This document shows, one piece after another, positions 12,514 through 63,797 of a DNA stretch of 64,000 bases. Numbering within the stretch: position 1 is the stretch's first letter; the number at the start of each line of letters is the position of its first letter. The translations under genes were made by a program, and so were the position numbers. Origin of the DNA: Bordetella parapertussis (lineage in GTDB: Bacteria > Pseudomonadota > Gammaproteobacteria > Burkholderiales > JACQAP01); contig CAMDKM010000011.1 in the NCBI GenBank assembly GCA_945900965.1, forward strand, positions 9,213 to 73,212, read 5' to 3'. The notes below the pieces were generated by a model. The model made no database searches and was not told where the DNA came from. It saw nothing but the letters and a program-made list of their open reading frames with translations.

Positions 12514-12703
12514 GCGAGAGTGCGATGACCGGTGACGGGTGACAAGTGAAAGCGTGAAAAGTGAATGAGTGAAGGCGTGAATGGTGACGAATGACGGGTG
12601 AGAATATGCGCGCCACCTTGCGGCGCTCCACCCCTCGCCACTCGATCCGCGATCCTCAATCCTGACCTCTCACCCCTCGTCCCTCGCCCCTCTCCCCTGA
12701 TTC
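12514..12703. repeat. heptad-arm palindromic element, copy 1
   Basis: Left arm of GTGACGG/GTGAAAG/GTGAATG units. Core hairpin GCGCCACCTTGCGGCGC (12610-12626). Right arm of CCCCTCG/AATCCTC/CCCTCGC units. Confidence 0.8.
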
Positions 12704-12705
12704 CC

Positions 12706-13308: not shown

Positions 13309-13500
13309 ACCTAGAAAAAGCAGCTGAACCACAGAGGCACTGCAGCTTCGGCCGTAAGTGCTGCGCCTTAAGAACATCGCGAAAAACAGCTTGTTGATTC
13401 TGTCCGTGCACTCACCAAAAAGGTGAACCCTGCTGGCATGACAACTGATTGATCTATTGTCCTTCTCGGTGTCTCTGTGCCTCTGTGGTGCAGATTTTGG
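13309..13500. repeat. CACAGAG-arm intergenic element, copy 2
   Basis: Perfect 13-bp inverted repeat ACCACAGAGGCAC (13328-13340) / GTGCCTCTGTGGT (13477-13489). Outer AACCTAGAAAAAG. Confidence 0.75.
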
Positions 13501-22381: not shown

Positions 22382-22598
22382 GTGACGGGTCACGGGTCAA
22401 CGGTGACGGGTGACGGGTGACGAGTGATAGCGTGAAGGGTGAATGAGTGAAAAGTAAAACATTCTGCGCGCCGCTTAGCAGCGCTCGTCCCCTCGACCCT
22501 CGCCCCTCATCCCTCGCCCTTAATCCCTCGCTCCTCAATCCTGACCTCGCACCTTTCATGTCTTACTCAATCCTCAATCCTAGATCCTGACTCTTCAC
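22382..22598. repeat. heptad-arm palindromic element, copy 2
   Basis: GTGACGG x several / GTGAAGG / GTGAATG arm, A-rich spacer, GC-rich centre (22466-22484), then CCCCTCG/CCCTCAT/AATCCTC arm. Ends 1 nt before the stop of the 22600 gene. Confidence 0.8.
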
Positions 22599-22599
22599 C

Positions 22600-36182: not shown

Positions 36183-36315
36183 AATGAGAAGTAAATGCGC
36201 GAAGGGTGAAGGGGGAAGGCGTGAATGAGTGAAGGGTTTAGGCTATCCCTCAATCCTCGCTCCTCAATCCTCAATCCTGACTTCGCTATCCCCCAGCCCC
36301 TACTCCCTCTCCCCT
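36183..36315. repeat. heptad-arm palindromic element, copy 3 (no GC core)
   Basis: GAAGGGTGAAGGGGGAAGGCGTGAATGAGTGAAGGG, then CCCTCAATCCTCGCTCCTCAATCCTCAATCCTGAC...CCCTCTCCCC. The right end reaches the rhomboid gene stop. Confidence 0.7.
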
Positions 36316-36934
36316 ACCGGCCCCGCCACCAACTGCCGGGGCCGCTTCTGCCGTAGCGGTACATCCACCAGCCGCCAAGCAATCCGCCCAGGTGCGCGAA
36401 GTGGGCCACACCCTGCTGTGTCCCGGTGACGCCGAGGAATAGTTCAAGCCCTGCGTAGATCGCCACGAACCAGCGCGCCGGAATCGGGATGGGCGGAATC
36501 AGCGGCACAATCTTTCGATCGGGGAATACCAGGGCATAGGCCAGCAAAATGCCGAACACACCCGCGGAGGCTCCCACCACCGGGCCCGCCCCTGCACCAA
36601 AGGCACCCCCGATCAGAAGATGGGCAACAGCGCCGGACACCACACTGGCAAAGTAGGCCAGGGCAACACGGCGCGGCCCCCACACCCGCTCCAGATCGGA
36701 GCCAAACATCCACAGCGCAAACATGTTGAATGCAATGTGCATGAAGCTGCCATGTAGGAAACTGTAGGAAAGCAACTGCCAGGGCGCGTATATCGGAAGA
36801 CTTCCCCAGCCCGTCCCGGCGCCGGGCCAAAGCGCAAACCACTCGAACAACATGTTCGCGCCCTGGGATTCCAGAAAGTAAATCAGCACGTTGACGATGA
36901 TCAACGCCTGGGTGAAAGGGGGCATCGGCCTCAT
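36314..36934 (-). CDS. rhomboid family intramembrane serine protease
   Basis: Catalytic Ser motif GASAGVFG and His motif HFAHLGG. 6 TM. Confidence 0.85.
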   Translation of the reverse strand: MRPMPPFTQALIIVNVLIYFLESQGANMLFEWFALWPGAGTGWGSLPIYAPWQLLSYSFLHGSFMHIAFNMFALWMFGSDLERVWGPRRVALAYFASVVSGAVAHLLIGGAFGAGAGPVVGASAGVFGILLAYALVFPDRKIVPLIPPIPIPARWFVAIYAGLELFLGVTGTQQGVAHFAHLGGLLGGWWMYRYGRSGPGSWWRGR

Positions 36935-41454: not shown

Positions 41455-41532
41455 CGTGAAGGGGGAAGGGTGAAGGCGTGAAGGGTCAAGGGTGAAGGGC
41501 GAAATCTAGTCTCTAGCCCCCAGTCTCTAGCC
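41455..41532. repeat. heptad-arm element, short copy 4
   Basis: GTGAAGGGGGAAGGGTGAAGGCGTGAAGGGTCAAGGGTGAAGGGC, followed by CTAGTCTCTAGCCCCCAGTCTCTAGCC. Confidence 0.7.
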
Positions 41533-41543
41533 TCAAATAGACC

Positions 41544-41570
41544 AAAAAAACGGGCACCCCAAGGTGCCCG
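41544..41570 (-). terminator. Rho-independent terminator
   Basis: Stem CGGGCACC / GGTGCCCG, loop CCAA. On the minus strand it is followed by TTTTTTT. Lies 33 nt downstream of the 41603 gene stop. Confidence 0.8.
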
Positions 41571-41602
41571 TATTCGCCTTACACGTTCTTTTCAGAAACG
41601 CA

Positions 41603-44707: not shown

Positions 44708-44711
44708 GATG

Positions 44712-44877
44712 TAGGGATGAGGGACGAGGGGTGAGGAACTAGGGGCTAGGGCCTTCATTCAATCACTCAATCACTCAATCACTCAATCACTCGAGTATGT
44801 CTGTTCACCGATTACCGTTCACCATTAACGGTTCACCGGTCACCGTTCGCTGTTCACCGTTTACCATTCACTGTTCG
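44712..44877. repeat. heptad-arm element, copy 5 (inverted orientation, with a 4 x TCAATCAC array)
   Basis: GGGATGAGGGACGAGGGGTGAGG, then (TCAATCAC)x4 at 44759-44790, then GTTCACC/GTCACCG units. It is the reverse complement of the module order seen at 50257-50485. Confidence 0.8.
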
Positions 44878-46257: not shown

Positions 46258-49200
46258 TCAAATTTCCGCCAGATATTTCTCCAACCGCTTGAACGACACC
46301 GGATACGGCGTCTTTAACTGCTGTGCCCAGAGCGACACTCGCAGTTCTTCCAGCATCCAGCGCAATTCTTCCAGCTTCGGATTGCGGATGCCGCGGTCGC
46401 GGTCCTGCTTGAGCTTGGTCAGATAGGTCTGCCAGTAGCGCGCGAGCTGGGCCTGCCAGTTGGCGTCGCGCTCGGGGTTGGAGGCGATTTTGCTCAGACG
46501 CACGGATATTGCCTCCAGATAGCGCGACATGTTTTTGAGACGCTCGAAGGCGGTGCTCGACAGGAACCCCGACGGCATCAGATCTTTCACTTGGGCGCGA
46601 ATGTCGGCCAGCGCGCGCGGATAAGCGGCAAACGCCGGCTGGCTTAGCTTGGCGCGCAAAGCCTGGTGCTCGGCGAGGATGTCATTGGCAATGCGGCAGA
46701 CTTCCTGCGCCACGTCCGGTAGACGGGTTTTTCCTTTGGCCACGCGGGTCTCGAAACTCTTTTTGTCGCGAATCGGATCGGCTTCGACAAAAACTGCGCG
46801 GTCGCAGATGGCGGTAATGAGTTCATCGCGCAAGCGGTCTGCGACGGTCGCTTTATCCTGCCTGCCGCCTTCTTCGCCCAGCAAGGCGTAACGCAGTTGC
46901 ATTTCGTTGAACGCGGGCAGATTGCGGGCCAGGAATTTCACCTGCTCGGGCAAGGCCAGTTGGAACAGTCGGCGCAGACCGCGCCGGGTAGCGGCCTGCG
47001 CTTCCGTATCGGTGTCGAGCAGTGTCAGCGCCACCGACTTGCCTTCATCGACGATGGCGGGATAACCAATCAGCTTACGGCCATCGCGCTGGACTTCGAC
47101 CTGCTCCGGCAGGGCATCGAACTCCCATCCGCTAAAGCCCTTGCGCTCGAAGGATTCGCTGGCCGCTTCGCTGAAAGTCTTGCGCGCCTTGATCCCCAAC
47201 TGGCTGCGCAGCGCGGCGAGATCGCGGCCGCTGGCGATCTCGTCGTTTTTTTCGTCCACCACGCGGTAGTTCATGCGCAGGTGCTGCGGCAGATCGGAAA
47301 CATCCCAGGCTTCCGCGGGAACTTCGACGCCGATCTTTTTGAAAAGCACTTGCGACAAGGCGGCGGTGAGTGGTGTGGCGTCCGGTGTCAGGATTTCCAG
47401 GCAAGTCGTCACCACCTGCGGCACGGGCACAAAGTTCTTGCGCAGGTTTTTCGGCAGGGATTTGATGAGGTGAGTCATCTTGTCGCGCAGCAGTCCCGGC
47501 ACCAGCCAATCACATCGGTTCTCGTCCACCTGATTGAGCAGGTGCAGGGGCACCACCGTGGTCACGCCGTCGAGAACATGTCCTGGCTCGAAGCGGTAGG
47601 TCAGATCGTAGGTTTGCATGCCGACGACTATGGCGTCGGGAAACTGTTCCTCGGTCACCTGTTCGGCGGTGTGCCGCATAAGGAATTCGCGAGTCAGGAA
47701 CAGACGCTTGGGTTCCGCGCGCTCGGCTTCACGACGCCATTTCTCGAGATCCACCGTGTTGCAAATGCTCTCAGGTATGCGTTCGCCGTAAAACGCGAAG
47801 ATCGCCTCGTCATCCACCAGCACGTCGTGGCGGCGCGACTTGTGCTCGAGTTCCTGCACCTCGGCGATCAGGCGGCGATTGTGCTCCAGGAAAGCGGGCA
47901 GGGTGCCGGGGTACTGGACGGCAACCAGTGCGCCGCGTAGAAACAATTCGCGTGCCTCCCTGGGTGCGATCGGGCCGTACTGCACACGGCGCTTGTGCAC
48001 CACCACCAACCCGTACACGGCCACCTGTTCGTAGGCGATCACCGAGCCGCTGTCCTTGGACCAGTGCGGCTCACGGTGGCTGCGTTTGGCCAGATGCGGG
48101 GCAAGGCGCTCGATCCATTCCGGCTCGATGCTGGCCACTCCGCGCGCGAAAAGCCGGGTGGTTTCAGTCAGTTCCGCCGCCATCACCCACTTGGGACCCT
48201 TCTTCTTCAATGCCGAGGCAGGACTCAAGACGAATTTGATCTGGCGCGCGCCCAGATAAATGCCGGCCTCCTCGGTCTTGAAGCCGATGTTTCCCAACAA
48301 GCCAGCCAGCAGCGCGCGATGCACGTCTTCGTAGCGCGCGGGGTTTTCATTCAGTCGCCAGCTCATTTCCGTCACCAGCGCGTGCAACTGGCTGTACAAC
48401 TCGCGCCACTCGCGCAGCCGCAAATAGGACAGGAAACGCTCGTGGCAATCCTGCACCAGCTTGCGGTTGGATTTTTTGTTCGCGAGCGCTTCATCGAACC
48501 ATTTCCAGATGGAAAGATAAGCCAGGAAGTCGGATTTTTCGTCGAGAAATTCGGCATGCGCCTGGGCGACAGCTTCCTGTTTGTCCATCGGACGCTCGCG
48601 AGGGTCCTGCACTGAGAGCGCTGCCGCGATGATGAGCACTTCGCTCAGACAACCCTCCTCTTTCGCCGCGACCAACATGCGCGCCACGCGCGGATCGATC
48701 GGCAGCTTGGCCAGTTGCTTGCCTGTCGGCGTGATCGTGCGCGATTCGTCCACGGCGCCCAATTCGGAGAGCAACTGGTAGCCGTCGGCAATCATGCGCG
48801 GCGTGGGCGCATCTACAAAAGGGAAATCTTCGATCTCGCCTAGATTCAGTGCGCTCATGCGCAGGATGACCGAGGCCAGCGAGGAGCGCAGGATTTCCGG
48901 GTCGGTGAATTCGCTGCGCGCGGCAAAATCCGCTTCGCCATAGAGCCGCAGGCACACGCCATTCATCACCCGGCCGCAGCGCCCGGCGCGCTGATTGGCC
49001 GAAGCGCGCGAAATTTTCTCCACTTGCAGCAACTCGACCTTGTTGCGATAGCTGTAGCGGTTGATGCGCGCGAGTCCCGAGTCCACCACGTAGCGAATGC
49101 CCGGCACGGTGAGAGAAGTTTCTGCGACGTTGGTGGCCAGTACGATTCGTCGCCCGCCACCTGACGAGAAAATTCTTTCCTGCTCCTCGGCCGAGAGCCG

Positions 49201-50208
49201 GGCGAAGAGCGGCAGGATTTCCGCGCCGGCCGGATGATGTTTGCGCAGCGCTTCGGCTGCCTCGCGGATCTCGCGCTCGCCGGGCAAAAATACCAGCACA
49301 TCGCCCGAACTGGATCGGGAGGTCAGCTCATCCACCGCGTTGACGATGGCCTCGGGCAGATCGATCTCGTGCTCGTCCTCGTCGTCCTCGTCGAAAGGGC
49401 GGTACAAAATGTCCACCGGATAGAGCCGGCCTGACACTTCAATGACCGGTGCGTTGTTGAAATGCGCCGAAAATTTTTCGGCGTCGATGGTCGCCGAGGT
49501 TATGATGAGCTTCAACTCGGGGCGCCTGGGCAGAAGCTTTTTGACGTAGCCAAGCAGGAAATCGATGTTGAGGCTGCGCTCATGCGCCTCGTCGATGATC
49601 AGCGTGTCGTATTGCGATAACCAGCGGTCGCCCTGGGTTTCGGCGAGCAGGATGCCGTCAGTCATCAGCTTGATATAGCTGTCGGGGCTGGACTTGTCCG
49701 TGAAGCGCACCTGGTAACCCACTTCCTCGCCCAGACGGGTGCACAGCTCCGCGGCAACCCTCGCCGCCACCGAACGCGCGGCGATACGGCGTGGCTGAGT
49801 GTGCCCGATCATGCCTTGTACGCCCCGGCCCATGTCCAGACAAAGTTTCGGCAGTTGGGTTGTCTTGCCCGACCCGGTTTCGCCGCAGATAATGACGATC
49901 TGATTGGCCTCGATGGCGGCGCGGATATCCGCGCGGCGCGCACTGATCGGCAGCTCCTCGGGGTAATCGACCTTTGGCAGATTCTGGCGACGCAATGCGG
50001 CACGTTCGGCCGAGCGCGTGGCCTCCTCAAATGCCTTGCGGTACTCGGTCGAAACATCCTTGCCGGCGCGAGCGGATTCTTCGATACGACGCAAGCGCCC
50101 GCGCAAGGGCCCGCGGTCACGCAGCATGCTGCGGTCAATGGTGTCGCGTAGCGACCGCAGGCCTTCTTTTATGGTGGGGACGGGAGGAGAAACTTCGGAA
50201 GAACTCAT
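46258..50208 (-). CDS. hrpA: ATP-dependent RNA helicase HrpA (DEAH box)
   Basis: Walker A GETGSGKTTQ, DEAH box IIDEAHERS, length of about 1316 aa from the ATG at 50208. The 152-codon upstream extension in the track is read-through of the repeat element. Confidence 0.93.
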   Translation of the reverse strand: MSSSEVSPPVPTIKEGLRSLRDTIDRSMLRDRGPLRGRLRRIEESARAGKDVSTEYRKAFEEATRSAERAALRRQNLPKVDYPEELPISARRADIRAAIEANQIVIICGETGSGKTTQLPKLCLDMGRGVQGMIGHTQPRRIAARSVAARVAAELCTRLGEEVGYQVRFTDKSSPDSYIKLMTDGILLAETQGDRWLSQYDTLIIDEAHERSLNIDFLLGYVKKLLPRRPELKLIITSATIDAEKFSAHFNNAPVIEVSGRLYPVDILYRPFDEDDEDEHEIDLPEAIVNAVDELTSRSSSGDVLVFLPGEREIREAAEALRKHHPAGAEILPLFARLSAEEQERIFSSGGGRRIVLATNVAETSLTVPGIRYVVDSGLARINRYSYRNKVELLQVEKISRASANQRAGRCGRVMNGVCLRLYGEADFAARSEFTDPEILRSSLASVILRMSALNLGEIEDFPFVDAPTPRMIADGYQLLSELGAVDESRTITPTGKQLAKLPIDPRVARMLVAAKEEGCLSEVLIIAAALSVQDPRERPMDKQEAVAQAHAEFLDEKSDFLAYLSIWKWFDEALANKKSNRKLVQDCHERFLSYLRLREWRELYSQLHALVTEMSWRLNENPARYEDVHRALLAGLLGNIGFKTEEAGIYLGARQIKFVLSPASALKKKGPKWVMAAELTETTRLFARGVASIEPEWIERLAPHLAKRSHREPHWSKDSGSVIAYEQVAVYGLVVVHKRRVQYGPIAPREARELFLRGALVAVQYPGTLPAFLEHNRRLIAEVQELEHKSRRHDVLVDDEAIFAFYGERIPESICNTVDLEKWRREAERAEPKRLFLTREFLMRHTAEQVTEEQFPDAIVVGMQTYDLTYRFEPGHVLDGVTTVVPLHLLNQVDENRCDWLVPGLLRDKMTHLIKSLPKNLRKNFVPVPQVVTTCLEILTPDATPLTAALSQVLFKKIGVEVPAEAWDVSDLPQHLRMNYRVVDEKNDEIASGRDLAALRSQLGIKARKTFSEAASESFERKGFSGWEFDALPEQVEVQRDGRKLIGYPAIVDEGKSVALTLLDTDTEAQAATRRGLRRLFQLALPEQVKFLARNLPAFNEMQLRYALLGEEGGRQDKATVADRLRDELITAICDRAVFVEADPIRDKKSFETRVAKGKTRLPDVAQEVCRIANDILAEHQALRAKLSQPAFAAYPRALADIRAQVKDLMPSGFLSSTAFERLKNMSRYLEAISVRLSKIASNPERDANWQAQLARYWQTYLTKLKQDRDRGIRNPKLEELRWMLEELRVSLWAQQLKTPYPVSFKRLEKYLAEI

Positions 50209-50256
50209 GGGGTGGCGCAGATGATCCTCAACCGGACGAGCCGGAACTTCACTAGG

Positions 50257-50485
50257 GAAGTGAAGGCGTGATTGAGTGATTGAGTGATTGAGTGATTGAG
50301 CGAATGCGTGAACGGTGAAGGGTGAAGGGTGAAGGGTGAAGGGTGAAGGGTGAAGGGTGAAGGGTGAAGGGTGAAGGGCGTGAATGGTAATCGGTGAACG
50401 GTGAAAAAATAAACGCGCCGCCTTGCGGCGCTCCACCCCTCGTCCCTCGCCCCTGGATCTCCCCTCGCCCCTAGTCCCTGGCCCC
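50257..50485. repeat. heptad-arm palindromic element, copy 6 (largest; 4 x GTGATTGA and 9 x GTGAAGG arrays)
   Basis: (GTGATTGA)x4 at 50268-50299. (GTGAAGG)x9 at 50315-50377. Core hairpin at 50415-50431. Right arm CCACCCCTCGTCCCTCGCCCCTGGATCTCCCCTCGCCCCTAGTCCCTGGCCCC. Confidence 0.9.
50404..50431 (-). terminator. Rho-independent terminator embedded in the repeat (for the amidase gene)
   Basis: Stem GCGCCGC / GCGGCGC with a 3-nt loop. On the minus strand it is followed by GTTTATTTTTT. Lies 85 nt downstream of the amidase stop. Confidence 0.6.
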
Positions 50486-50515
50486 TTTACCGGGACCAAC
50501 GCCTTGGCGCTTAAA

Positions 50516-51832
50516 TCAGAACAATCCGCTGAACGGAGAATGTTTCTCGCACCATGCGGCGGTGGACAGCAGGTAGTTCTCTTCCTCAGCCGCGCCGACC
50601 AGTTGCATGCCAAGCGGCAAGCCGCTGGGCCCTTTGCCGACAGGAATCGTAATGGCGGGAACACCGACCAGGGTCCAGATGGTGCAAAACCGCGGATCGC
50701 CCGTCACCGATAGCGTGGACGGCGCTTCGCCAGGGGCCGGGGGCGTCACAATCGCAGAGTAACCGCGGTCGAAAAATTGCGCCAGGCTTTGTTGATACTG
50801 AAGCCGCATTTTCAAGGCTTCGCGATAATCGGCCTCGCGCATGTTGGCGCCTTCGTCCAGGGCCGAGTTCAGGTAATCGGAAAATTTGTCTCGATAGGCG
50901 GCGCGTACCACCTTCGACACTTTCGCCGCCTCGAACAGCATGATGGTCCGCTGCACGGCGTGCGCGCCATCGAATTCTCCCGGAATCTCCAGAACGTCCA
51001 CCGAGGCACCGGCCTCGCGCAGGCGACGAACGTCGGCATCGAACTGGACGCGCTGTTCGGGCGCGGCCAGATGCCAGACCGGCGAGCGCACCGCGGCCAG
51101 GCGCGGCGCGCTGCGCAGCGGCCGCACTTCCGGCGCGATGGCGCTGCGATTTTCCGTCAGGCAGGAGGCCAGGAAGGCCGCATTGGCAACGTCGCGCGCA
51201 AACACGCCGGGTTGATCGAGCGTCGGAGAAAACGGCATGATCCCGCGTGCGGAGATCAGCTCTGCGCTGGGCTTGTAGCCCACAATGCCGCAAAACGCCG
51301 CGGGACGAATGATCGAGCCGTTGGTTTGTGTTCCCAGCGCCCCAGCCACGAAGCCCGCCGCCACGGCAGCTGCCGAACCGCTCGACGAACCGCCGGGAGT
51401 ATGCGTGGCATTCCATGGATTGCGGGTGCGCCCCGGCGTCATGAAGGCGGCTTCGGTACTCACCGTCTTGCCGAACATGATCGCGCCGGCCGATTCCAGC
51501 CGAGTCACCACATCTGCCGTTTCTTTCGGCACATAACCGACATAGGCCTGGCAGCCCATTTCGGTGGGAATGCCGGCGGTATAAATGTTGTCCTTGACCC
51601 CAATCGGGATGCCGTGCAGAGGATGGGCCAGACGCAGGGGCGTATTGGCGGTATCCGCTGCAGCGGCCAGCGCCATGGCGCGGGCAGTATCGAGCCACTG
51701 CCAGGCCTGCACATCCTTTTCCAGTGCGCCAATGCGCTCCAGCAAACTGTGGGTGTAGTTCGCACTGGTCATCCGACCGGAACGGATAAGTTGGGCCGCT
51801 TCACGCAGGCTGAGTTTGTACAAATTGCTCAT
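50516..51832 (-). CDS. amidase (amidase-signature family)
   Basis: 438 aa. AS signature GGSSSGSAAAVAAGF and upstream IGVKDNI. Confidence 0.9.
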   Translation of the reverse strand: MSNLYKLSLREAAQLIRSGRMTSANYTHSLLERIGALEKDVQAWQWLDTARAMALAAAADTANTPLRLAHPLHGIPIGVKDNIYTAGIPTEMGCQAYVGYVPKETADVVTRLESAGAIMFGKTVSTEAAFMTPGRTRNPWNATHTPGGSSSGSAAAVAAGFVAGALGTQTNGSIIRPAAFCGIVGYKPSAELISARGIMPFSPTLDQPGVFARDVANAAFLASCLTENRSAIAPEVRPLRSAPRLAAVRSPVWHLAAPEQRVQFDADVRRLREAGASVDVLEIPGEFDGAHAVQRTIMLFEAAKVSKVVRAAYRDKFSDYLNSALDEGANMREADYREALKMRLQYQQSLAQFFDRGYSAIVTPPAPGEAPSTLSVTGDPRFCTIWTLVGVPAITIPVGKGPSGLPLGMQLVGAAEEENYLLSTAAWCEKHSPFSGLF

Positions 51833-51862
51833 ATTTTTCTAGTGGTGTCGTGCAATCTAAAT

Positions 51863-51998
51863 CCTTGACGCAACGACGCAAAGGCGCAAAGGAAAATACG
51901 GGCGAAACCAGATTGCGAGGCTCGCCCGGCGGCGGGCTTTTTTCGGTTTACCAATACGCATTTGAATTTCTTTGCGTCTTCGCGTCGTTGCGTCAAGG
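51863..51998. repeat. 136-bp element with perfect 17-bp terminal inverted repeats (GACGCAA-unit arms)
   Basis: CCTTGACGCAACGACGC (51863-51879) is the exact reverse complement of 51982-51998. The arms extend imperfectly to about 30 bp. Internal hairpin GCCCG-GCGG-CGGGC plus T6 at 51923-51942. Confidence 0.85.
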
Positions 51999-52003
51999 TT
52001 TGC

Positions 52004-63213: not shown

Positions 63214-63660
63214 TCAAACTCTGGACGGCAGCAGGCGCAATATTTTTGCATTGCTCCAGGAAAACACCTTGTCGGCTGCCTTATCGTGGGGCAGCCAGGC
63301 AAATTGCAGATGTTCCCGCGGAGACAGGGTCGCGGGAAGCGGGGCCGGAAGGCACAAGCCGAATACATGCTCGGTATTGTGCGTCACGCCTGGCGCATAG
63401 CGCCAGCGCCATTCCGGATAGATTTCGTAACGGTTCTGCGTCTGCCAGTCCGTCAGGGTCCCGGCAATTCCAGCGATACCGGTTTCTTCGGCCACTTCCC
63501 GGGCGGCGGTTTCGACCAGGGTTTCGCCCTCTTCCTGGCTGCCTGTCACGGATTGCCAAAATCCCGGGCGATCGGCGCGCTCCAGAAGCAACACCTGCAG
63601 GTCCGGCGTATGAATGACCACCAGCACCGAAACCGGGATCTTAAAGACAGTTTTTGCCAC
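63214..63660 (-). CDS. nudB: dihydroneopterin triphosphate diphosphatase NudB (Nudix)
   Basis: Nudix box GSQEEGETLVETAAREVAEETGI and FWQSVTG. The GTG at 63660 gives MAKTVFKIPVSVLVV, the same N-terminal length as E. coli NudB. TTG 63690 and GTG 63669 are alternatives. Adjacent to aspS as in E. coli. Confidence 0.8.
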   Translation of the reverse strand: MAKTVFKIPVSVLVVIHTPDLQVLLLERADRPGFWQSVTGSQEEGETLVETAAREVAEETGIAGIAGTLTDWQTQNRYEIYPEWRWRYAPGVTHNTEHVFGLCLPAPLPATLSPREHLQFAWLPHDKAADKVFSWSNAKILRLLPSRV

Positions 63661-63797
63661 AGAGGCCACAGAGGTCTCAGAGAAATTCAATAGCGCGAGT
63701 TCGAATTCTGGTCAACACCGTTGGTGCTCTGTGATAGATCACCCGCGCAAGAATGTTCTTGATTGCCGTTCTCTGTCTCCTCTGTGCTCTCTGTGGC
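63656..63797. repeat. CACAGAG-arm intergenic element, copy 4
   Basis: GCCACAGAGGCCACAGAGG (left) and CTCTGTCTCCTCTGTGCTCTCTGTGGC (right), with subterminal TTCTTGATT. It fills the whole aspS-nudB gap. Confidence 0.8.

Follow-up and report, generated by a model that had tools for sequence, protein, structure and literature searches.

We analysed a stretch of 64,000 nucleotides from an uncultured Burkholderiales bacterium (assembly GCA_945900965.1, contig CAMDKM010000011.1, positions 9,213 to 73,212 of the forward strand; 58.8% G + C), hereafter the window, whose DNA is also present in the metagenome-assembled genomes (MAGs) GCA_040081635.1 and GCA_947487555.1 and in several assemblies of the European Nucleotide Archive (ENA). 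The amidase it encodes shares 100% identity with an NCBI protein assigned to a Burkholderiales MAG. In this window, the spacer between the amidase gene and hrpA, both on the minus strand, is occupied by a composite repeat (50257–50490), one of six elements numbered El1 to El6 from left to right, in which a purine-rich array of tandem 7-nt units is followed by a pyrimidine-rich one. These six tracts are intergenic heptanucleotide long simple-sequence repeats (SSRs), microsatellite-like and arranged as convergent pairs. The repeat family is real, and had been correctly observed in a first-pass annotation made by a model from the sequence letters; it belongs to a known, poorly understood kind rather than to a new class. 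The most interesting results are the rearrangement mediated by the arrays and a rule of polarity relative to genes that extends across phyla.

Architecture and kinship of the elements

Tandem arrays were sought with Tandem Repeats Finder (TRF) and with a separate period scan of the window. TRF reported period-7 arrays, or their 14- and 21-nt multiples, in all six tracts (for instance GTGAAGG ×13.7 at 50308–50405, GTGACGG ×6.6 at 22382–22427 and GTGAAGG ×6.7 at 41456–41503), together with two 8-mer arrays, GTGATTGA ×5.5 at 50268–50311 in El6 and TCACTCAA ×4.8 at 44755–44792 in El5. Likewise, the period scan attributed 295 nt in nine segments to period 7 and 134 nt to period 8 (the 8-mer arrays of El5 and El6 included), versus 32, 38 and 27 nt for periods 5, 6 and 9, respectively. 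All six tracts located by the first-pass annotation were verified in the sequence; they are intergenic and devoid of any open reading frame (ORF) of their own. The copies span 78–234 nt, with arms of very unequal length, and essentially fill their spacers, at a density of approximately 12 arms in 64 kb, i.e. about one element per 10 kb.

One order of modules is kept in the six copies: a GTGA-type purine arm, an optional centre and a CCCCTCG/AATCCTC-type pyrimidine arm. The centre, made of an A-rich stretch and a GC hairpin, is found in three copies (El1, El2 and El6), and El5 stands in flipped orientation, both as first described. The 28-nt core reported as common to El1 and El6, GCGCC[A/G]CCTTGCGGCGCTCCACCCCTCG, is indeed exact at 12610–12637 and 50415–50442, and these two exact copies in the window compare with no match in 100 shuffles, even when three mismatches were allowed. 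Moreover, the elements have in common multi-unit blocks of 15–22 nt in which two or three different units follow each other in the same order: CACCCCTCGTCCCTCGCCCCT in El1 and El6, TCCTCAATCCTGACCTC in El1 and El2, and GTGAATGAGTGAAGG in El1 and El3. The shared core and blocks thus indicate that the copies are related to each other, beyond a similar composition.

The surroundings of the elements were established from gene calls and Pfam annotation of the window DNA, which cover approximately 50 kb of it; units are given below as read on the plus strand unless stated otherwise. In El6, the minus strand presents successively the amidase stop codon (50516), about 26 nt, the G-rich complement of the pyrimidine-rich arm (50432–50490; CCCCTCG, TCCCTCG and CCCCTAG), a terminator-like module (50404–50431) composed of the hairpin GCGCCGC-AAG-GCGGCGC (50431–50415) and GTTTATTTTT, then (CACCCTT)n and (CAATCACT)n, and, after 47 nt, the ATG of hrpA (50210). 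The last two runs are the complements of the GTGAAGG array detected by TRF and of the distal 8-mer array, which extends over 50257–50311. Because the pyrimidine strand of El6 is without a stop codon, a mechanical ORF (46258–50664, minus strand, 1468 aa) runs through the element into the amidase gene; it is about 150 codons too long, the called hrpA having 1316 aa and a start at 50208–50210. Such stop-free pyrimidine strands create false long ORFs, of which this 1468-aa ‘hrpA’ is an example.

El1 begins directly past the stop codon of a DUF2237 gene (12513) with a purine-rich arm of GTGACGG, GTGAAAG and GTGAATG units (12514–12602). It continues with the 28-nt core (12610–12637), in which the hairpin GCGCCAC-CTT-GCGGCGC (12610–12626) precedes the first units of the pyrimidine-rich arm, and this arm (12627–12705; CCCCTCG, ATCCTCA and ATCCTGA) adjoins the ATG of a GNAT acetyltransferase gene (12706), which has no Shine–Dalgarno sequence. 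In El2, the purine-rich arm (22382–22462; GTGACGG ×6.6, GTGAAGG and GTGAATG) lies 50 nt from the start of a minus-strand MFS transporter gene (22332), and the pyrimidine-rich arm (22485–22599; CCCCTCG, CCCTCAT, AATCCTC and ATCCTGA) reaches up to the stop codon (22600) of a minus-strand gene encoding 137 aa; between them stands, on the minus strand, a central hairpin (22468–22484; GCGCTGC-TAA-GCGGCGC) with a T-rich tail.

El3 fills the spacer between the convergent DUF2914 and rhomboid genes, its purine-rich arm (36183–36240; GCGAAGG, GTGAAGG, GGGAAGG and GTGAATG) lying 27 nt past the DUF2914 stop codon (36156) and its pyrimidine-rich arm (36241–36315; AATCCTC, ATCCTGA and CCCCTAC) overlapping that of the rhomboid gene, on the minus strand (36314). 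El4, read on the minus strand, comes after an ArsR-like gene and its terminator-like hairpin (41546–41572; ACGGGCACC-TTGG-GGTGCCCGT followed by TTTTTTT, as read from the sequence), which adjoins the element outside the heptad arms. There follow a G-rich arm, complement of a short pyrimidine-rich arm of TCTAGCC and CCCAGTC units (41504–41534), and (CCCTTCA)n, complement of the purine-rich arm (41455–41503; GTGAAGG ×6.7), and 8 nt further on comes the ATG (41447) of a gene encoding 218 aa, again without a Shine–Dalgarno sequence. Finally, the purine/G-rich arm of El5 (44708–44750) is of the GAGGGG type (GGGATGA, GGGACGA, GGGGTGA and GGGGCTA) and starts directly past the stop codon of an aldo-keto reductase gene (44707), whereas its pyrimidine-rich arm (44751–44877) consists of the TCACTCAA run followed by GTTCACC-type heptads (44803–44876) and ends 57 nt before a tRNA-Arg gene (44934).

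Folding, terminators and quadruplex motifs

The first-pass annotation saw in each element a long imperfect hairpin, a view that the folding results do not support. As RNA, five of the six elements fold no better than dinucleotide shuffles (z = −1.3 for El1, −0.1 for El2, −1.4 and +0.2 for El3, +1.6 and +1.0 for El4, +1.0 and 0.0 for El5), El6 giving −4.1 and −3.2. Moreover, the mean duplex energy is −32.6 kcal/mol for arms of the same element versus −40.3 kcal/mol for arms of different elements. As own arms pair no better than foreign ones, their complementarity is the generic one of purine and pyrimidine tracts and not a selected structure. In view of the shuffles and of the cross-element pairing, the long-hairpin model was rejected.

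By contrast with this model, the role of putative amidase terminator ascribed to the El6 hairpin is supported by a pattern scan, which returned two terminator-like sites in the region scanned versus 0.3 expected in shuffles. With 7 G–C pairs, a 3-nt loop and a GTTTATTTTT tail, this hairpin, located on the minus strand approximately 85 nt past the amidase stop codon, has the features predicted for an intrinsic terminator. No terminator was called for the El1 hairpin, on either strand, or for that of El2, the U-tract criterion failing in both. In each of these two hairpins (12610–12626 and 22468–22484), one G:U pair on the minus strand corresponds to an A·C or C·A mismatch on the plus strand; El1 has plus-strand genes on either side, and this asymmetry, resting on two cases, may be due to chance.

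Five canonical G-quadruplex (G4) motifs were detected in the window, all of them within elements and none outside, versus approximately 5.8 expected from shuffles across the whole window. On the minus strand, they lie in the pyrimidine-rich arms of El1 (12673–12705), El2 (22489–22527) and El6 (50436–50485) and at that of El3 (36290–36324); on the plus strand, the fifth is the near-perfect run of the El6 heptad array (50320–50378). The G-tracts of the El4 and El5 arms are imperfect. As for catalogued RNA families, none was recognized in the elements, in line with the first reading of the sequence: the sole match in the window at the Rfam gathering threshold is the tRNA-Arg, and permissive scans of El6 and El1 returned only sub-threshold noise resembling eukaryotic miRNAs, far below gathering scores.

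The elements could be conceived as functional structures, G-quadruplexes (of DNA or RNA) or arm–arm hairpins punctuating transcription units, which would terminate or pause RNA polymerase, shield the 3′ ends of mRNAs as REP sequences do or keep 5′ leaders unstructured, the outward orientation of the G-rich strand relative to the gene being selected for that role. The confinement of the window's G4 motifs to the elements and the El6 terminator-like hairpin, with its folding better than shuffles, are in favour of such a role, as are the polarity rule across phyla (see below) and the G3N4 heptads of Xanthomonas, mostly transcribed and able to form G4 in vitro (PMC4692102). However, the other five elements fold like shuffles with arms unmatched to their own partners, and the GTGA- or GTTCACC-type purine arms of El1, El4 and El5 mostly have GG runs only and no G4 motif. 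In addition, the arrays are absent from the equivalent spacer of relatives whose amidase is 75–84% identical, their unit number varies among near-identical strains, which fits neutral turnover better than a conserved function, and no regulatory role was found by Rehm et al. (PMC4692102). We therefore regard a functional structure as unlikely.

Array turnover and a reciprocal exchange

Strains with identical flanking proteins, and with DNA at least 99.98% identical over the measured stretches, were compared for array length. El6 varies among them in heptad number and, in one strain, by an 18-nt indel in the G-rich/pyrimidine arm (50432–50490), and the TCACTCAA run of El5 is one unit shorter in MAG GCA_040081635.1, whereas the degenerate El1, El2 and El4 are of constant length. 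Perfect arrays thus change by whole units between near-identical strains and degenerate arrays do not, which is the signature of slippage in perfect repeats.

At a larger distance, relatives with amidases 84, 77 and 75% identical keep the gene order 2-Hacid_dh–amidase–hrpA, with spacers of 137–287 nt of unique DNA and no period-7 segment in approximately 13 kb each. The absence of repeats from these syntenic spacers indicates that the arrays are young and lineage-specific. Relatives with an 88%-identical amidase have a different downstream gene and other repeat types.

The El6 array was found to be involved in an exchange between loci. In sample ERZ27280310, the arrangements are amidase–El6–hrpA (contig L002) and Rieske–element–rhodanese (L413), whereas sample ERZ27280197 displays amidase–rhodanese (L003) and Rieske–hrpA (L408). 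The four junctions were recovered (L003:11303–11600, L408:16432–16700, L413:3790–4020 and window 50320–50378). Along contig L003, identity is 99.98%, first with the window (11.5 kb) and afterwards with L413 (5.0 kb); along L408 it is 100%, with the window for 16.6 kb and with L413 for the following 3.9 kb. At both joins, the two matches overlap in 59 nt of (CCCTTCA)n. That all four junctions of the exchange fall within this 59-nt tract is newly reported here.

Most simply, these joins would result from an inversion, the heptad arrays of El6 and of a seventh element, in inverted orientation, having undergone homologous recombination. In this seventh element, located outside the window in the same species (L413:3818–4000), GAGGTGC and TCTAGGCGCTAGGGC units precede (CCCTTCA)n and, beyond it, CCCCTGA/CTCCTGA and GTTCACC units; its pyrimidine arm ends 5 nt before the ATG of the rhodanese gene, without a Shine–Dalgarno sequence. 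At first sight, L003 and a further contig (L006), in which the amidase gene is followed by that for rhodanese, resembled chimeras. However, the amidase–rhodanese junction was found in two separate assemblies, and the apparent assembly k-mer of 141 (deduced from the ‘k141’ contig names) exceeds the 59 nt of the shared tract, both of which argue against mis-assembly.

The demonstrable consequence of the arrays is genome plasticity: spacers vary in length, and arrays recombine with each other so that segments of the chromosome are inverted. These sequence analyses do not demonstrate a regulatory role.

Dispersal by transposition was also considered. A non-autonomous mobile element, miniature inverted-repeat transposable element (MITE)-like or foldback-like, with terminal inverted repeats made of short tandem units and a transposase encoded elsewhere, would be consistent with the composite order kept in six of six copies, the exact core in two of them and the shared 15–22-nt blocks. 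It would also suit a density of about one copy per 10 kb and the presence of the elements in this species where the spacer of relatives is wholly different. Yet the elements have no defined termini or length, their arms are very unequal and, unlike terminal inverted repeats, are not complementary to their own partner. By eye, no target-site duplication was seen at the fuzzy ends of the six tracts, and among sister strains none devoid of an element was found. In agreement with the first-pass annotation, no transposase was called among the Pfam-annotated genes, which cover approximately 50 kb of the window, and neither these genes nor the flanking ORFs include one of RAYT type; small accessory genes (four-helix-bundle or transposase-like) were likewise not found in the flanking ORFs. 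Furthermore, what relatives have at this position is a replaced spacer and not a clean empty site, and many phyla display this architecture with numerous unrelated units, beyond the reach of one transposase. All this makes a mobile element quite improbable, and a MITE in particular was rejected, as own arms pair no better than foreign ones and as arm lengths and units differ between the two sides.

Two types of known dispersed elements deserve comparison in this respect. Eukaryotic foldback transposons have inverted arms of short tandem repeats, variable in number, around a short centre; they promote rearrangements and encode a transposase. The elements described here resemble them by their inverted tandem-repeat arms around a short centre, but differ by showing no evidence of transposition. 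REP sequences of enterobacteria and pseudomonads are fixed imperfect palindromes of approximately 35 nt linked to the RAYT transposase. Like REP and the bacterial interspersed mosaic elements (BIME), the elements are intergenic, often past stop codons, dispersed, potentially hairpin-forming and substrates of recombination; however, their unit is a 7-nt direct tandem one and their sole palindrome is the 17-nt hairpin of three of the six copies. An assignment to REP/BIME was accordingly rejected, and no Y1 transposase was called in the approximately 50 kb of annotated window genes.

Other dispersed repeats were encountered during these comparisons. An inverted element with different units occupies 51860–52001 of the window, between the 2-Hacid_dh and amidase genes, both on the minus strand: its 35-nt arms of 8–9-nt units (GACGCAAAG / CTTTGCGTC), 89% complementary, flank a plus-strand terminator-like hairpin (GGCTCGCCCGGCGGCGGGCTTTTTT), and its polarity is purine-then-pyrimidine, as in the heptad elements. 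A second repeat family, with GCCACAGAG / CTCTGTGGC units, is found at 63656–63797 and 13324–13493 of the window, with arms of 36 nt (78% complementary) in one copy and of 17 nt (94%) in another. It also occurs in the relatives with an 88%-identical amidase (L405 approx. 1640–1665 and L406 approx. 1950–1975), and the presence of the CTCTGTGG motif downstream of the amidase gene in these relatives indicates that this family is older than the heptad elements. In the same relatives, the spacer after the amidase gene (L405:1385–1450 and L406:1680–1745) displays a CCCTCTCCCTCCGGGAGAGGG hairpin followed by GTGAGGG, a different type of dispersed repeat.

Polarity relative to genes and a proposed origin

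In the gene maps of the window, arms lie 0–50 nt from stop or start codons, and the six elements all obey one strand rule: the sense strand is purine/G-rich past a stop codon and pyrimidine-rich ahead of a start codon. The purine-then-pyrimidine order is shared by these six elements, the seventh one and the three inverted elements with other units.

This order extends well beyond the species. The trimer (GTGAAGG)3 occurs in more than 119 genome loci of many lineages, among which Burkholderiales, Gallionella, Hydrogenophilales, Gemmatimonadaceae, Bacteroidota, Planctomycetota, Verrucomicrobiae, Chloroflexota and Acidobacteriota. The 119 listed loci contain 240 period-7 segments versus at most 31 for any of periods 5, 6 and 8–12, a dominance partly built in since these loci were picked by a heptamer. 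Where two arms neighbour each other within 150 nt, the order is purine-then-pyrimidine in 22 cases and the reverse in none; in many of these pairs, (GTGAAGG)n and (CCTTCAC)n form a true palindrome with a unique spacer in the middle, and others combine different units. In a test based on symmetric masking and crude ORF calls, 64 of 96 unpaired arrays (p = 0.0014) and 48 of 52 paired ones have their nearest gene boundary on the 5′ side of the purine strand. In betaproteobacterial loci, arrays reach the start codon of an opposite-strand gene or provide the stop codon of a same-strand gene.

The phenomenon is a class of units rather than one sequence. In viral contigs, (GTGAAGG)3 was found in 27 loci, and other G3N4 units of equal base composition are about as common (GGGAGTA in 41, GGGATGA in 18, GGGTAGA in six and GGGAATG in four loci), which makes a GTGAAGG-specific factor unnecessary; such a factor was rejected. 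Counts of 24-mers in these contigs gave 17 loci for the heptamer, 50 for the hexamer and two for the octamer; the hexamer figure is not reliable, in-frame coding repeats being the probable confounder, and many matches are giant-virus contigs, so that only the excess of heptamer over octamer is informative. Several contigs classed as viral (among them IMGVR_UViG_3300017992_000721, 3300037343_000061 and 3300028895_000633) have three or four separate (GTGAAGG)n arrays each. A metagenome scan with the 18-mer GCGGCGCTCCACCCCTCG was discarded: its at least 120 matches, with a mean of 67% GC and many in apparent coding DNA, were all attributable to chance, the 18-mer being too short for GC-rich DNA, and the full 28-nt core was in none of those listed.

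A strictly convergent orientation, in 22 pairs versus none among the listed loci and in six of six elements in the window, would follow automatically if the elements were repair scars, a templated or slipping polymerase adding G-rich heptads to the 3′ ends at double-strand breaks before these are rejoined, since rejoining leaves two arrays whose G-rich strands face each other. The unique or hairpin-containing spacer between arms and the replacement of the whole spacer relative to relatives would agree with such scars. On the other hand, no enzyme candidate was found, unpaired arrays also obey the gene-end polarity, which a break-centred model does not foresee, the two arms of each window element belong to different unit classes (GTGA- versus GAGG-type), and arms abut coding ends as expected from growth limited by selection. 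An origin of this type thus appears very unlikely.

The proximity to start codons could also suggest arrays of binding sites for a protein or the ribosome (S1 on pyrimidine leaders, CsrA on GGA, or the anti-Shine–Dalgarno sequence with AAGG/GGTGA) that tune the translation of neighbouring genes. Indeed, pyrimidine arms end 0–8 nt before the GNAT, 218-aa and rhodanese starts, all devoid of a Shine–Dalgarno sequence, purine arms contain repeated AAGG, GAGG, GGTGA and AGGAU motifs, and a similar proposal was made for the TAACTGA repeats of Beggiatoaceae (PMC4679880). Nevertheless, approximately 40% of the window genes are without a good Shine–Dalgarno sequence anyway, units vary widely both inside a genome and from one genome to another, orthologous genes do not retain the arrays, and no candidate binding protein is linked to them. 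We give this explanation very little credit.

Taken as a whole, a combination of slippage, recombination between arrays and selection on translation signals, the last accounting for polarity, seems to us a reasonably probable origin of the elements. Replication slippage creates and resizes arrays in place, as shown by the unit-number polymorphism. Homologous recombination or gene conversion, to which the shared multi-unit blocks and the one observed crossover point, would keep arrays at different loci alike and occasionally invert DNA. Arrays would then grow until they reach coding sequence and survive in one polarity only. The purine/G-rich strand, which often has stop codons in all three frames, GTG starts and Shine–Dalgarno-like AAGG, GAGG and GGTGA, would be tolerated as the sense strand only past a stop codon, whereas the pyrimidine-rich strand, nearly free of start, stop and Shine–Dalgarno-like sequence, would be the sense strand upstream of a start codon. 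Such a polarity filter alone would lead to the purine-then-pyrimidine order on both strands, hence to the look of a palindrome without selection for a hairpin, and the near absence of translation signals from the pyrimidine strand would allow a single orientation to grow up to a start codon or to overlap a stop codon. In this scheme, the GC hairpin of El6, lodged between the arms, would be an ordinary intrinsic terminator serving the amidase gene, and those of El1 and El2 may be copies or decayed versions of it. The unit types fit this asymmetry, as 3% of them contain ATG or GTG on the pyrimidine strand versus 44% on the purine strand, and 8% versus 48% contain a stop codon; no excess of stops beyond base composition was detected in purine-strand units, the observed frequency being reached by 13% of composition-matched shuffles.

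Several points weigh against this origin. The translation-signal filter is one that we infer, and the start and stop content of units equals the prediction from base composition; G-richness itself, by way of G4 or R-loop effects, is an equally possible cause of the polarity. Besides, both the pairing of GTGA-type and GAGG-type arms in six of six elements and the exact 28-nt core of El1 and El6 exceed the order expected from independent slippage, so that sequence exchange between loci, or the copying of composite units, must be invoked. The unit length of 7 nt is not accounted for in this scheme. The inversion was deduced from metagenome assemblies, and the matches listed in the (GTGAAGG)3 genome scan do not include the window's own genome, represented by the window elements and the L413 copy only. 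We consider it decidedly unlikely that the arrays are non-passive, the constant 5′-to-3′ course of the G-rich strand away from the adjacent gene reflecting a dedicated and widespread process (G4/R-loop punctuation or templated addition of heptads) and the arrays serving in addition as favoured crossover sites for inversion.

Repeats of this general kind have a history in other bacteria. Mazel reportedly described, in 1990, intergenic tandem heptamers (STRR) in cyanobacteria, the unit of STRR1 being, it is said, CCCCAGT; this heptamer occurs once in El4, and not in tandem. TAACTGA heptamers are scattered over distant phyla, being known in Beggiatoaceae, Cyanobacteria and Bacteroidetes, and precede start codons by no more than a few nucleotides; direct arrays standing singly are the usual form, one indirect repeat being reported in the Guaymas genome (PMC4679880). 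The present elements resemble STRR and TAACTGA repeats as intergenic tandem heptamers, but differ by their units and host group. The GGGACCG elements of Geobacter are further relatives (PMC2700814).

The closest counterparts are the G-rich heptads of Xanthomonas and Nostoc. In Xanthomonas, GGGAATC repeats form 186 arrays, with 70 cases of convergent pairs in one genome (Rehm et al. 2015, PMC4692102). The repeats described there are approximately 90% intergenic, array length differs between related species, quadruplexes form in vitro, no function was found, and the G-rich strand is the coding one immediately past stop codons and the non-coding one immediately ahead of start codons (PMC4692102). 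The absence of a recognizable consensus and the unusual character put forward in the first-pass annotation thus do not hold, since the kind had been described in Xanthomonas and Nostoc (PMC4692102), the cyanobacterial heptamers being another precedent. As to a match with a catalogued repeat family, the kind is the same, whereas the units differ from GGGAATC, GGGGACT and GGGGATT, and these sequence families are not matched. The elements have all the features of heptameric G-rich repeats, namely 7-nt tandem units with G-tracts and G4 motifs, an intergenic location near gene ends, convergent pairs, the strand rule and variation in unit number. They depart from the repeats of Rehm et al. by their units (GTGAAGG/GTGACGG and GAGGGGC/GAGGATT, hence two unit classes per pair), the GC hairpin core between the arms of three copies, the 8-mer sub-arrays and a higher density. 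Moreover, an array is here a recombination breakpoint, whereas Rehm et al. reported a greater local stability of synteny (PMC4692102). GTGAAGG arrays in bacteria were not mentioned in the literature searched.

According to the survey of Mrazek, Guo and Shah (2007), as summarized in PMC4679880 and PMC4692102, heptanucleotides are the most abundant class of long SSRs in most bacterial genomes examined. Long SSRs (5–11 nt) are, in the same summaries, non-coding, enriched in genomes that are large and rich in GC (Burkholderia being one of the richest in such repeats) and attributed to polymerase slippage, a polymerase footprint being proposed for the 7-nt length. The paired inverted architecture and the polarity relative to genes are not described in that survey as so summarized.

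The polarity known from Xanthomonas and Nostoc is now also seen in a sample of many phyla. In a natural population, a perfect array of 59 nt appears to suffice as the crossover site of a reciprocal chromosomal rearrangement, and at such arrays a difference in gene order between metagenome contigs from one species can be genuine.

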